From positions 1 through 63,364 of the forward strand of contig JBHLMQ010000007.1 of the NCBI GenBank assembly GCA_048938005.1: DNA of 63,364 bases. The letters run 5' to 3'. The position numbers and the translations under genes are program-made. The notes beneath the pieces were generated by a model, which was not told the DNA's origin, searched no databases, and saw nothing but the letters and a program-made list of their open reading frames with translations. This DNA comes from Promethearchaeota archaeon (GTDB lineage Archaea; Asgardarchaeota; Lokiarchaeia; Sigyniarchaeales; SOKP01). Below are positions 49,111 through 54,270 of this stretch, in pieces. Positions within the stretch are counted from its first letter, which is position 1; the number at the start of each line of letters is the position of its first letter.

Positions 49111-49270
49111 TTCAGTTAAAAAGAGTAAATAAAATAATTAATCATTCCTAAAAAATTTTACTAAAATCTATTAACACATTTAGGATAAAAGCAAAAATAT
49201 TTTAGTTTTTATTTCTTTTTATTCTCAATAAAAATATACCAATTTATAAAAAAATAATTAGGTGCTTCTA

Positions 49271-49849
49271 TTGGGAAGGAGAAAACGTAAACAAGTATCC
49301 CCAAAACGGGTAAAAAGGGTTCCAAAGATCTTCACATGCCCAGAGTGCGGTGAGAAAAGCGTAAAAGTGACAGAGCTTAAAAAGAAAGGAGCCTTTGCCA
49401 CCGTTAAATGTGGGAATTGCGGGTTGACAAAAGAAGTACTAGTAAATTCAATTTCAGAACCCGTTGACGCTTTTGGAGATTTCATTGATATCTATTATGC
49501 TGATCAAGAACTACAAAGATTAGAAAGAAGAATAAAAAAATTAAAGGAAGAACATGAATGGGGAGAGCTTGCATTAGCCTACTCTATTTTATCAGATCTA
49601 TGCAAAACAAAGGCTGCGATATTATTAGAGGAGGAAGATGTCAATTTGGATGAAGTTAATGATTGGAAAATGAAAGCTGAAGAATATAAACAACTTGAAA
49701 AAGATACAATCTTAAAATTAGATACAGAAGAATTAGAACGAGGGGTTAAGACTGATGAAGAATCTTTATTTGCTGAAAGTGAGACTAAGATAAAAAAAGA
49801 ACGAAAAATTGAAGATATTTTTGATGATCCTGGGTTTTTAGAGTTTTAA
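49271..49849 (+). CDS. elf1: Transcription elongation factor Elf1 with long C-terminal extension
   Basis: MGRRKRK...FTCPECG...CGNCG...EPVDAFGDFID; TTG start after an AGGTG RBS. Confidence 0.88.
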   Translation: MGRRKRKQVSPKRVKRVPKIFTCPECGEKSVKVTELKKKGAFATVKCGNCGLTKEVLVNSISEPVDAFGDFIDIYYADQELQRLERRIKKLKEEHEWGELALAYSILSDLCKTKAAILLEEEDVNLDEVNDWKMKAEEYKQLEKDTILKLDTEELERGVKTDEESLFAESETKIKKERKIEDIFDDPGFLEF

Positions 49850-50001: not shown

Positions 50002-50463
50002 TTAACCAGATTGGCTTTTACGCTTAGCAAACAATTGTTTAAGTTCCCCCATTATTGCCCCTCTTAGAGATACAGGACTTGTAGGACGATTCGACGCAGG
50101 AGTGGGACCTGGCCCTCGTGGAGCGCCTGGGGGACCTCCAGGTGGCGGAGGTGGACCTCCAGGAGGACCGCCAGGGGGACCTCCGAGTGCACGCGCTGGA
50201 GTGGGGGTTACTGTTGCTGGAGCTGCTGTTCCAGGAGCGCCTCCAGATCTTACAGATGAAATTTGATTATTAAGGGAATTAATTTGGTTTTGTAAATTTG
50301 ATACTTTCTCGTTTACCGCGCTAAGTGATTGATCAACTAAATCCGGTATACGTAAGACAATTGACATTATCTTTTCAATGATATCGCCAAAGGCATTTAA
50401 TTTCTCTTCCAATGGCGCTTTTCGAGTACTATCTAAGAAATCTGCAAATTCTTCGGCACACAT
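50002..50463 (-). CDS. Coiled-coil + polyproline + WH2-like helix protein
   Basis: GGPPGGPPGGPPPPPGGPPG; C-terminal SLRGAIMGELKQLF. Confidence 0.6.
   Translation of the reverse strand: MCAEEFADFLDSTRKAPLEEKLNAFGDIIEKIMSIVLRIPDLVDQSLSAVNEKVSNLQNQINSLNNQISSVRSGGAPGTAAPATVTPTPARALGGPPGGPPGGPPPPPGGPPGAPRGPGPTPASNRPTSPVSLRGAIMGELKQLFAKRKSQSG
50125..50184 (-). repeat. Coding GGPP/polyproline repeat
   Basis: GC-rich 60 nt encoding GGPPGGPPGGPPPPPGGPPG with varied codons. Confidence 0.85.
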
Positions 50464-50590: not shown

Positions 50591-51214
50591 TTAGCTTAGT
50601 TCTGTTACAGTATCTTTTAATTTAATCCATAGGGAATTAATTTCATTTCTTACTTCAATAAATTGATGTATTTTTTTAAGGAATATATCTCGGGCTCTAT
50701 CAAAATCTCTTTGAACATCATTTAATTGTTGGTCGAGAATGTTTAATTTATCGCCTTCAATTAATTTATTCTTAGCTTTTTCGACATCTAATGCTTTTTT
50801 TATTACTATAGATCTTCTATTAGCAACATCAGCTAATGCATCGACAAATTCTTCCTTTTTTTGAACAAAATATTCTTTTTGTACAGCCAAATCTTTAATT
50901 GCATTTAAATATTTATTATTAGCTTTTATATAATCATCATTTTTATTAATTATTTCTTTATACAGGTTTACTTCTTCATCTTTAATATTAGATCTATGTT
51001 CTCGCGCAAGAGTTTGCATTTGTTTTAACACATCTCGAAAAGTCCGATTTAACATATCCCTAGTATTATTTACATTCATAATATTATCCGCGTATTTTTT
51101 TTGGGAACTTATCAGTGCGTTTTGGGTCCTCGCCAGTTTCTTTAATTGGGAGACTAATTCTTTTTCCATTTTAGCGAGTTCTAATTCATCCTCATGAGTT
51201 ATAATTGGACTCAT
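50591..51214 (-). CDS. All-helical coiled-coil protein, BAR-domain-like
   Basis: 207 aa of long heptad helices; C-terminal DKLNILDQQL..VQRDFDR...KIHQFIEVR recalls SNX/Vps5 BAR helix 3. Confidence 0.45.
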   Translation of the reverse strand: MSPIITHEDELELAKMEKELVSQLKKLARTQNALISSQKKYADNIMNVNNTRDMLNRTFRDVLKQMQTLAREHRSNIKDEEVNLYKEIINKNDDYIKANNKYLNAIKDLAVQKEYFVQKKEEFVDALADVANRRSIVIKKALDVEKAKNKLIEGDKLNILDQQLNDVQRDFDRARDIFLKKIHQFIEVRNEINSLWIKLKDTVTELS

Positions 51215-52352: not shown

Positions 52353-53447
52353 TCATAGTTTATATCGTAAAATTCCTATTATTGAACCAATATCTACTAA
52401 TTGTTCTCCTGTAATATTCTCTGTACTCATTATGTTTATTTCTCCACCAGACTTCTCAACATTTGTTATAATTTCCTCAATTTTTAACTTTTTTTCTTTT
52501 GAGGCTCCTCTAATTAAAACATCTGCAATGAATAGTTGTTTGACTGCACCTTTTTCAGAAGCTTTAGACACTTCATCAAAACCAATAACAATAAGATCAG
52601 CATCATTGGCAAACAATGTCATTATATTTTCGATTTTCTCAGTTTCTTTTAGAACTTTAATTTTATTTTTAAGATTAGCTAACTTTTTTGATCTTAAAGT
52701 TTCTCTAATTGCACTTTCAGTGCCAGAACTTGCATGGCAAGTTTCAATATTGCCTCTGAAAGCAAAATTAGCAGTTTTTCGAAGAAAATTTATGAAATTA
52801 TTTTTAGTATTTCCAGGACCGCAAAACACCAATAAATTTATATCAATATTTTTAATATTTTCCATAATTACTTTTTGTATCTCTCCAAAGAACTCTTCCA
52901 AGGCTTTATTTCGATAAGTTTGTTTATATCTTTTACCAGGTATATTTTTTTTAATAGTGGCAATTCTATTATGGCTAAAATTTGTAATAAGTGCTAATGT
53001 TGCTAGCCCTGTTTCAATTGCAGTAATTAATATAATAAAGTTAGATTCGAATTTTGAGATCTCTTTTAATCGCTTTAATTCGTGTTTTAACCAGTGTTCT
53101 TTAATAATTGTCAATTTTTGAGATACTTCTATGTTAAACGTGTGGTAAGTTCCAAAGCTGACAAAATCTTCAGGACCTTCTAAAATTTTACCTTTTATTC
53201 TTAATCGATTTGAAAATTCATGAAAGGAGACAGTTTCAACTTTTAATTTTAATCTCATTAATTTACGTTCACCTTTAGTTCCCTCTTTAAGAACAACTCG
53301 TCTATGAGTTAGAGCAGTAACTTCGTCATCTTTATTAATAACATTATAAAGAATCCACAAATCGTAAAGATTATCAGTCTTAACTGTAACCTCTTCATTT
53401 TTTTGATTAATATCCAGAATTTTCAAATCCTTAAACAGACTCCTCAA
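52353..53447 (-). CDS. pelA: Pelota (Dom34) ribosome rescue factor
   Basis: DLWILYNVI, FHEFSNRLRIKG, GTYHT, IPGK, GPG, GEQL..IGSIIGILRY; start may be the TTG at 53426. Confidence 0.94.
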   Translation of the reverse strand: MRSLFKDLKILDINQKNEEVTVKTDNLYDLWILYNVINKDDEVTALTHRRVVLKEGTKGERKLMRLKLKVETVSFHEFSNRLRIKGKILEGPEDFVSFGTYHTFNIEVSQKLTIIKEHWLKHELKRLKEISKFESNFIILITAIETGLATLALITNFSHNRIATIKKNIPGKRYKQTYRNKALEEFFGEIQKVIMENIKNIDINLLVFCGPGNTKNNFINFLRKTANFAFRGNIETCHASSGTESAIRETLRSKKLANLKNKIKVLKETEKIENIMTLFANDADLIVIGFDEVSKASEKGAVKQLFIADVLIRGASKEKKLKIEEIITNVEKSGGEINIMSTENITGEQLVDIGSIIGILRYKL

Positions 53448-53578
53448 AAATTATTGTTATTTAAAATAATTTAAAATTAAAGAAAAGCTTAATTTAATTC
53501 AGCCTGAATATAAAGCTAAGTAAAAATAAAATAAATAAAAAAAGATAAAAATTAACTCAAATAAAAATGTATAACTTG

Positions 53579-53731
53579 TTATTTTTCTCCTAAAGCTTCT
53601 TTTACTTTTTCTAGTTCTTCCATCCGTTTCTTTTTCTCTTCTTCTCGTCTTTTTAGCTCTGCTTCATCAACTTTTTGGAGTGTCACACCTTTTTTTATTT
53701 CCTCTTGAAGTTCCTTATCTACTGGAGCCAT
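53579..53731 (-). CDS. 50-aa WH2-motif microprotein, not in ORF track
   Basis: MAPVDKELQEEIKKGVTLQKVDEAELKRREEEKKKRMEELEKVKEALGEK; AGGTG RBS upstream. Confidence 0.75.
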   Translation of the reverse strand: MAPVDKELQEEIKKGVTLQKVDEAELKRREEEKKKRMEELEKVKEALGEK

Positions 53732-53817
53732 TTTTTATCAACACCTTTTATTTTGAATTGATCAAAAATAATCAAATTGATATTTACAGATATTATAATA
53801 GAATTTATTTATAAGTT

Positions 53818-54270
53818 TTAGTTTATAAAGAGTCTATATAAATAAGCACTTTCTCCAGATTGATAATAATTTTCCAAAATCGTTGGATCTCTTTTGAAAT
53901 TAAATTTTTCGTATAATTTAATGGCAGTGGAATTACTTAATTGGACATTTAAGACAATTTTTTTAATTTCCATTGACTTTTTTACTTCATCTATAGCTTT
54001 TTGAAGTAGATATGAACCATATCCTTTATTTTGAAATTTTGGTTTAATGAGAAAATTAATAATATTGACTCTATCCTTTTTATCTTTTATACCTATTATA
54101 AAGCCGATTAATTGGTTCCTAATTTTACCAATTTCCAACTTTAAAAAGAAATTATTGTTTTGTATTAATTTTTCAATTAAATTTTTTGAAAATGCATTCT
54201 TTTTAAAAATTTTTTGCTCGAGATTTACAATTTTATTTAGATCTCTTGGATTTACATTTTTAATTTTCAT
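53818..54270 (-). CDS. RimI-like GNAT N-acetyltransferase
   Basis: FQNKGYGSYLL, LNV..SN..AIKLYEKFNF, NYY..GESA. Confidence 0.88.
   Translation of the reverse strand: MKIKNVNPRDLNKIVNLEQKIFKKNAFSKNLIEKLIQNNNFFLKLEIGKIRNQLIGFIIGIKDKKDRVNIINFLIKPKFQNKGYGSYLLQKAIDEVKKSMEIKKIVLNVQLSNSTAIKLYEKFNFKRDPTILENYYQSGESAYLYRLFIN

Follow-up and report, generated by a model that had tools for sequence, protein, structure and literature searches.

A conserved 50-residue microprotein of one order of Loki-type archaea as a candidate, unproven actin regulator of WH2/beta-thymosin-like character

The window, i.e. the whole 63,364-nucleotide stretch of Promethearchaeota archaeon DNA analysed here, encodes a 50-residue microprotein that we propose as a good though unproven candidate for an undescribed archaeal actin regulator. 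Whether the gene represents the free form of an order-specific WH2/beta-thymosin-like module that binds monomeric Lokiactin 1:1 is, in our judgement, an even call. The sequence signals suggesting such a module are individually weak and converge with one another; its strongest support is contextual and comes from relatives in which the module is fused to a profilin-like domain or repeated in tandem arrays. The 50-residue product of 53579..53731 (minus strand) is MAPVDKELQEEIKKGVTLQKVDEAELKRREEEKKKRMEELEKVKEALGEK, and the features of the gene and its immediate surroundings are the following:

53579..53731, minus strand: coding sequence of the microprotein, ATG to TAA, 50 codons, stop included
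53742..53746, minus strand: Shine-Dalgarno-like AGGTG, 10 nt 5' of the microprotein ATG
53690..53716, minus strand: codons 6-14, WH2-like short amphipathic N-terminal helix in the AF2 model, with hydrophobic positions 4, 8 and 12
53666..53689, minus strand: codons 15-22 (G-V-T-L-Q-K-V-D), helix breaker and extended LxKV, non-helical in the AF2 model
53585..53665, minus strand: codons 23-49, long charged helix in the AF2 model, with the conservation block E32, K33, K35, R36, E39 and L40
53530..53578, minus strand: T-rich tract 3' of the microprotein stop, read from the sequence, with T5+ runs in orthologues
53818..54270, minus strand: GNAT acetyltransferase gene, directly upstream of the microprotein gene
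52353..53447, minus strand: pelota/eRF1-family gene on the other flank of the microprotein gene

An earlier note on this DNA had recognized a stand-alone 50-residue frame with an AGGTG ribosome-binding site; this was confirmed to the exact sequence, with the minus strand now added, as the note gave none. Its description of the gene as unannotated is correct for the ORF track of the first stage of analysis, whereas public gene callers have predicted the homologues as 'hypothetical protein', and the expectation that standard gene calling would miss so small a regulator is therefore wrong for the public databases. The microprotein frame is a real small gene under strong purifying selection, because it has 247 homologues, low omega values, a retained ribosome-binding site and start codons that shift without loss of frame. 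The homologues were recovered at E<=0.01 among 248 candidates in a word-seeded search of 5.8 billion proteins; the 120 that were listed are 49-51 aa long and 78-94% identical to the microprotein, and those with names are called hypothetical proteins and come from metagenome genomes of Promethearchaeota/Lokiarchaeota type, apart from a single JGI name that is clearly mistaken. Among 20 pairwise codon comparisons with orthologues, omega was 0.003-0.10 in 14, synonymous sites were saturated in four (pS >=0.75, with pN 0.07-0.10), and two were dropped as being one residue out of register. A regex recovered the orthologous ORF in 23 of 30 related loci, the remaining seven being missed by the pattern rather than absent. 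These 23 begin with ATG (12), GTG (9) or TTG (2) in the same frame; AGGTG stands in the 25 nt upstream of 15 of them and AGGT in that of 20. Each of the 23 is followed by a T5+ run no more than 60 nt downstream, and the T-rich tract behind the microprotein gene is likely an archaeal terminator. In tblastn comparisons across 30 loci of family f1, piece identity was 73-95% for the microprotein as against 58-84% for pelota and 44-73% for GNAT. A search of 53300..54000 with Rfam gave no match inside the microprotein ORF; the sole match at E<=1 was a sub-threshold PGK RNA (E 0.25) at 53364..53445, inside the pelota gene. All 20 sequencing runs listed for the locus are of DNA, which speaks neither for nor against transcription.

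The family is delineated by two profiles, A1 with 25 close members and A3 with 38 diverse members, and is defined by G-x2-L-x-K-[VIP]-[DS] followed by E-x-K-x-K-R-x-E-E-L over ~45 residues, both of which the microprotein carries. Among 301 genomes of the phylum A1 has matches in 70, including 63/68 of family f1 and 6/7 of its sister family f2, and no match outside these two families. The broader picture from A3 comprises 147 of 400 genomes: 143 of the 154 within the window's order (124/134 in f1 in addition to the genome of the window itself, 13/14 in f2, 1/1 in f32 and 4/4 in f33), 0/7 in the remaining families of the class, and 4/246 outside the order, all of them marginal (E 5e-4 to 7e-4). 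The check on conservation across Asgard genomes that had been suggested for this ORF thus came out positively within the order. The microprotein family is hence, as judged by profile searches, a feature of one order of Loki-type Asgard archaea. Lokiactin, by contrast, is present in 61/61 genomes of the class. Given its confinement to one order, the family is no general Asgard actin factor, and convergence or lineage-specific invention is the safer reading of its WH2 likeness. The genome of the window has four actin-family genes, with a Lokiactin of 381 aa (L001:1474-2619); among full-length best matches this Lokiactin is 96-100% identical in f1 and 88-91% in f2, far above the neighbouring housekeeping genes.

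The WH2 consensus comprises a short amphipathic helix whose hydrophobic residues recur at intervals of about one turn, a helix breaker and, a few residues later, an LKKV/LKKT-type motif. The spacing in the microprotein, L8-x3-I12-x2-G15-x2-L18-x-K20-V21, fits this consensus with LQKV as the motif, and codons 15-22 would then be the equivalent of LKKV/LKKT. The residues I12, K14, G15, V16, L18 and K20 are invariant in the 25 close members, position 8 being L or M, and in the 38 diverse members L18 is invariant and G15 nearly so, with LKKV in many of them. By itself the motif could have arisen by chance, a loosely written WH2-like pattern matching 16 of 23,330 six-frame segments of the same genome. 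The best-conserved block of the family sits in the C-terminal charged helix and is without a counterpart in the 28-position Pfam WH2 model.

The exact WH2 match claimed in the earlier note consequently stands in part: the register is real and conserved in the family at L18 and G15, but the microprotein fails the Pfam WH2 model (PF02205), with no match at E<=10. The HMM search that the note had proposed was likewise divided in its outcome. The model has no match in the genome of the window and exceeds its gathering cut-off of 23.1 bits in 0/81 genomes of the order, where two marginal matches lie at other places; three of the 38 diverse members match at E<=10, of which P0145 passes the cut-off with 23.7 bits and P0140 and P0137 reach 16.5 and 14.1. 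P0145 is 62% identical to the microprotein over 39 residues (7-45), which span both halves of the module. The Pfam Thymosin model (PF01290) found nothing at E<=10 in the microprotein, the 38 members, three sister-family forms, P0139 or P0143. Since both model tests fail, we do not file the microprotein as a member of either Pfam family. Matches to DUF3006 (11/38 members) and to the H-NS N-terminal coil (8/38), which arise because of the charged helix, are more frequent than those to WH2 (3/38). A 169-aa repeat protein with the look of a verprolin-type WH2 protein, P0166, was set aside as too weak: its hhalign alignment to A1 has a probability of 26% and E 7e-4 over 18 columns, and it matches Pfam WH2 only at E 0.2.

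Comparisons with proteins of known structure point to WH2 from another side. Against 177,635 PDB sequences A3 gave 15 matches at E<=10, with actin-bound N-WASP tandem WH2 at rank 1 (3m3n_W, E 8.4e-5), a triple Spire WH2-D at rank 2 (3mn7_S, E 0.01) and N-WASP again at rank 5 (2vcp_D, E 0.06). These E-values add up the scores of three artificial repeats in engineered constructs, whereas a single stretch has E 6-23. The remaining ranks are unrelated proteins. With A1, N-WASP is the best natural match (E 0.0063). The nearest named clusters in the ESM Atlas are thymosins both for the microprotein (0.87) and for a sister-family form (0.87, with 185 shared features), which we take as leads only.

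An AF2 model based on the 38-member alignment (pLDDT 87, pTM 0.44) predicts a helix at residues 6-14, a non-helical stretch at 15-22 and a second helix at 23-49, with pLDDT 92-95 in the middle of the latter. This second helix, dominated by E, K and R, bears out the charged helix that the earlier note had seen after the motif. The predicted layout corresponds to that of bound WH2 and beta-thymosin, with a much longer second helix. A Foldseek search of the 50-residue model, too small for such a search to tell much, gave 0 matches in the PDB at E<=10.

A HMMER scan of 1.84 billion representatives identified 50 proteins with the module at E<=1e-3, and together with six-frame genome matches it revealed five architectures:

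(a) free-standing protein of 50-57 residues
(b) 9-10 head-to-tail copies with a period of ~46-48 residues, 479-497 aa, all-helical, no linkers
(c) profilin-like N-terminal domain, module and a further ~50-residue domain, in 52 proteins
(d) Ras/Roc-type GTPase, module and ribbon-helix-helix
(e) leucine-rich repeats, module and ribbon-helix-helix-like domain; also ribbon-helix-helix-like domain plus module

The fused forms surfaced via the profile search and not via the single-sequence search for longer relatives, in which, as a weak negative, none of 618 candidates reached E<=0.001. No gelsolin domain occurs alongside the module in the relatives examined.

The free-standing forms of family f2 (55 residues; L101:1498-1662, L102:1495-1659 and L103:1489-1653) are without the glycine, and their middle reads K-x-K-[LM]-x-K-[VH]-S. 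In all of them, and likewise in P0139 and P0143, the C-terminus is an acidic tail that contains a tryptophan (GKWEE), reminiscent of the A region in the VCA segments of WASP-family proteins.

The arrays are encoded by genes separate from that of the microprotein: the multi-WH2 form, which the earlier note had imagined as arising by oligomerization through the C-terminal helix, exists covalently as 9-10-repeat genes in the sister family f2 and not in the microprotein gene itself. Each of the three single-contig f2 genomes (G317, G213 and G312) has one array gene and one stand-alone gene. In two f2 genomes the tandem-repeat gene (488 residues; L042:3-1900 and L043:3378-5253) lies between a YggS-like (Ala_racemase_N) gene and one for a thermosome (Cpn60/TCP-1). 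Pfam WH2 matches 0/4 Asgard tandem proteins at E<=1 and two of three further tandem proteins weakly (E 0.067 and 0.3).

Of all the contexts, the profilin fusion argues most strongly for a link of the module to actin. AF2 predicts the fusion with pLDDT 76 overall and 82-89 in the N-terminal domain, and a structure search with this domain places Asgard profilins at ranks 1-5 (E 6e-10 to 2.5e-8, TM 0.80-0.88). Four of these are profilin/actin complexes (5zza_P, 5zzb_A, 5zzb_C and 5yee_A) and the one at rank 4 is LokiProfilin1 alone (5yed); Roadblock proteins first appear at rank 40. A precomputed Pfam Profilin match exists for two of the 52 fusion proteins, and two others are sub-threshold (21.6 and 19.1 vs 25 bits). 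The motif in the fusions reads LEKPD, so that an acidic residue and a proline occupy the places of the basic residue and V/T of WH2. Neighbours of the fusion gene are a methyltransferase and a CheB-like gene.

The remaining fusions bring in signalling and DNA-binding domains. Loci combining a GTPase or leucine-rich repeats with the module and a CopG-type ribbon-helix-helix are L038:1767-2717, L040:1668-2723, L039:1311-2150 and L105:1267-2568. Should the module bind actin, these proteins would connect the actin pool with GTPase signalling or with DNA binding; the GTPase, leucine-rich-repeat and DNA-binding fusions would fit an actin sensor but are no argument for one. The layout of leiomodin is likewise leucine-rich repeats plus WH2.

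As for genomic context, the block radical-SAM, GNAT, microprotein, pelota and radical-SAM is kept in 30/30 f1 loci. The f2 stand-alone gene has a convergent ZPR1-like neighbour in the three single-contig genomes and a GNAT gene upstream in one of them (L102:867-1361); acetylation of the N-terminus of the peptide by the GNAT enzyme is a thought that this arrangement brings up. At the loci examined, no actin gene was found adjacent to the microprotein, tandem or profilin-fusion genes.

These contexts bear directly on an alternative that we consider unlikely though deserving of serious attention, namely that the module is a charged helical adaptor for a partner other than actin, e.g. a small-GTPase signalling or translation component, with the WH2 likeness arising by coincidence in an E/K-rich, low-complexity setting. 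The Ras/Roc GTPase, leucine-rich repeats and ribbon-helix-helix fused to the module are none of them actin parts, the C-terminal helix, which is the best-conserved portion, is no WH2 feature, and DUF3006 and H-NS coil matches outnumber those to WH2. The constant pelota neighbour of the f1 loci and the ZPR1-like neighbour of the f2 genomes add to this, since elongation factor 1A has pelota and ZPR1 alike among its partners. However, these neighbours differ by family and ZPR1 lies on the opposite strand, so that no operon is shown; further, the adaptor leaves unexplained the profilin fusions as well as WH2 constructs at the top of the PDB list and thymosins at the top of the ESM list.

Somewhat less probable is a purely structural role, in which the module is a helical-hairpin unit, the arrays form a solenoid or BAR-like scaffold, and the 50-residue unit dimerizes and has no part in binding monomers. 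Such a role would accord with the all-helical tandem proteins and their back-to-back repeats of ~46-48 residues without linkers, with the conservation of hydrophobic positions in both helices and with the confidence of AF2 in each of them. Yet a helix buried in a solenoid would not be expected to consist mainly of E, K and R, as the second helix does; the pTM is only 0.44 and Foldseek is without a fold match; and it is difficult to see why a lone 50-residue hairpin, were it a piece of scaffold, should retain 78-94% identity. Finally, that the frame is a chance opening in AT-rich DNA and no gene, as its shortness and the ~25% G+C of the region might suggest, is vanishingly improbable and refuted by the conservation data, given the 247 homologues, the low omega with near-saturated synonymous sites, the conserved ribosome-binding site and the frame kept through changes of start codon, with no Rfam match within the ORF to set beside them.

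Returning to the WH2/beta-thymosin-like module, for which actual binding of an actin monomer by the microprotein seems to us evenly poised between right and wrong, a mechanism can be outlined in which we infer every step that involves actin. G15 would end the first helix, and the extended V16-V21, with L18 and K20, would take the role of LKKV/LKKT on the actin surface. The helix 23-49 might then run up the monomer like the C-terminal helix of beta-thymosin, resulting in sequestration; alternatively, it might contact a further partner or another copy. Overall, the microprotein would buffer or deliver the monomer pool. In the 9-10-repeat relatives several monomers could be lined up for nucleation or multi-monomer delivery, and the profilin fusions may either hold a single monomer by two of its sites or pass it on.

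A comparison with the eukaryotic counterparts brings out both the parallels and the differences. WH2 (PF02205) occurs in N-WASP, WAVE, WIP, MIM, Spire and Cordon-bleu. As in WH2, a short amphipathic helix, a glycine and L-x-K-V stand at equal spacing in the microprotein, the Asgard module occurs singly as well as in tandem arrays, actin-bound WH2 constructs are its best PDB matches, and one relative is over the Pfam cut-off. Unlike WH2, the microprotein and its order fail the Pfam model, variants such as LEKPD occur, and the microprotein has an extra, better-conserved charged helix of 27 residues. Beta-thymosins are free-standing proteins of ~40-55 residues consisting of a helix, an LKKT-type stretch and a C-terminal helix, and their multi-repeat representatives ciboulot, tetrathymosin and actobindin have 2-4 units in eukaryotes. 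The Asgard family shares with them a free-standing peptide of ~45-55 residues with the order helix, LKKT-type stretch and second helix, along with multi-repeat forms; it differs in having no PF01290 match, in a second helix that is far longer in the microprotein and begins directly after LxKV-D, and in arrays of 9-10 units as against 2-4.

A precedent for joining profilin to a WH2-like element is offered by the trypanosomatid (Leishmania) profilin, for which a solved actin complex is reported, with a WH2-like helix bound in the target cleft of the same monomer (PMC10907219). As in the 52 Asgard fusions, the two elements share one polypeptide; unlike in the fusions, the trypanosomatid motif is reported to be inserted inside the profilin fold (PMC10907219). 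The Asgard fusions, known here from sequences and models, have the module after the profilin domain and then the ~50-residue domain. Within the Asgard archaea, linkers of two-domain gelsolins bear four-residue WH2-like motifs, LRRV, LKHV and LVDV/LKDV, which in the papers searched are the only WH2-like elements so far described in these organisms and which mark the motif-binding actin groove as a working site for Asgard proteins, in complexes solved with rabbit actin (PMC9433394, PMC7444086, bioRxiv 10.1101/2025.11.30.690169). Unlike those motifs, which lie within the linker of folded gelsolins, the module described here is separate and without a gelsolin domain. A free-standing or tandem WH2/thymosin-like archaeal protein was not found in the published full texts searched; supplementary tables may list such proteins.

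Profilins and gelsolins are named as the two recognisable classes of Asgard actin regulators (PMC7444086). Among proteins that co-purify with Lokiactin, the main texts of the published work mention just profilin, gelsolins, an ARF GTPase and two proteins with BAR domains. To the two classes the module might add a third, comprising a peptide buffer, arrays acting as nucleators or carriers, and fusions (with Ras/Roc, leucine-rich repeats and ribbon-helix-helix) through which small-GTPase signalling and gene control would depend on the actin pool, a reading that we advance tentatively and hold at somewhat below an even chance. If it is true, the 50-residue protein would serve archaea as a beta-thymosin-like monomer buffer, its 9-10-repeat relatives would act as nucleators of the Spire/Cordon-bleu kind or as carriers of several monomers, and WH2-type actin handling would exist outside eukaryotes, by descent or by convergence. 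How Lokiactin polymerisation is controlled is a matter that a recent live-cell study defers to later work (PMC13716822). A buffer or nucleator is missing from the picture, and a peptide that binds monomers, or better still an array of such peptides, would fill this place; it would also bear on the question if WH2-type modules are older than the eukaryotes or evolved on two occasions.

Other genes in the same part of the window deserve mention in their own right. At 50002..50463 (minus strand) lies the gene of a protein of 153 residues comprising a conserved helical portion at the N-terminus, a coiled-coil and a G/P-rich tract with PPPPP, the DNA of which has 74% G+C at 50100..50199. Its C-terminal helix is nearly invariant across 16 sequences (S132, L133, I137, M138, E140, L141, K142, L144, K147 and R148). 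The protein is present in 57/61 genomes of the order; neither a Pfam family (at E<=0.001) nor WH2 (at E<=1) matches it. Next to it, at 50591..51214 (minus strand), a 207-residue all-helical protein has FCH/F-BAR as its best Pfam match, which is sub-threshold (E 0.0032, 18.2 vs 27.8 bits). The two genes adjoin in 13/13 f1 loci beyond the window, in one of four f2 loci and in one of f32; at an f33 locus the FCH/F-BAR-like match is weak and lies ~700 nt from the proline-rich gene. The distance from this pair to the microprotein gene is ~3.1-3.6 kb in most f1 genomes as against 55-240 kb in the three single-contig f2 genomes, and the grouping therefore looks like family-level synteny and not a module. 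Lastly, 49262..49849 (plus strand) encodes a protein homologous to transcription elongation factors of the Elf1 zinc-ribbon type (Pfam Zn_ribbon_Elf1, E 1.2e-18) and extended at its C-terminus by an acidic stretch.
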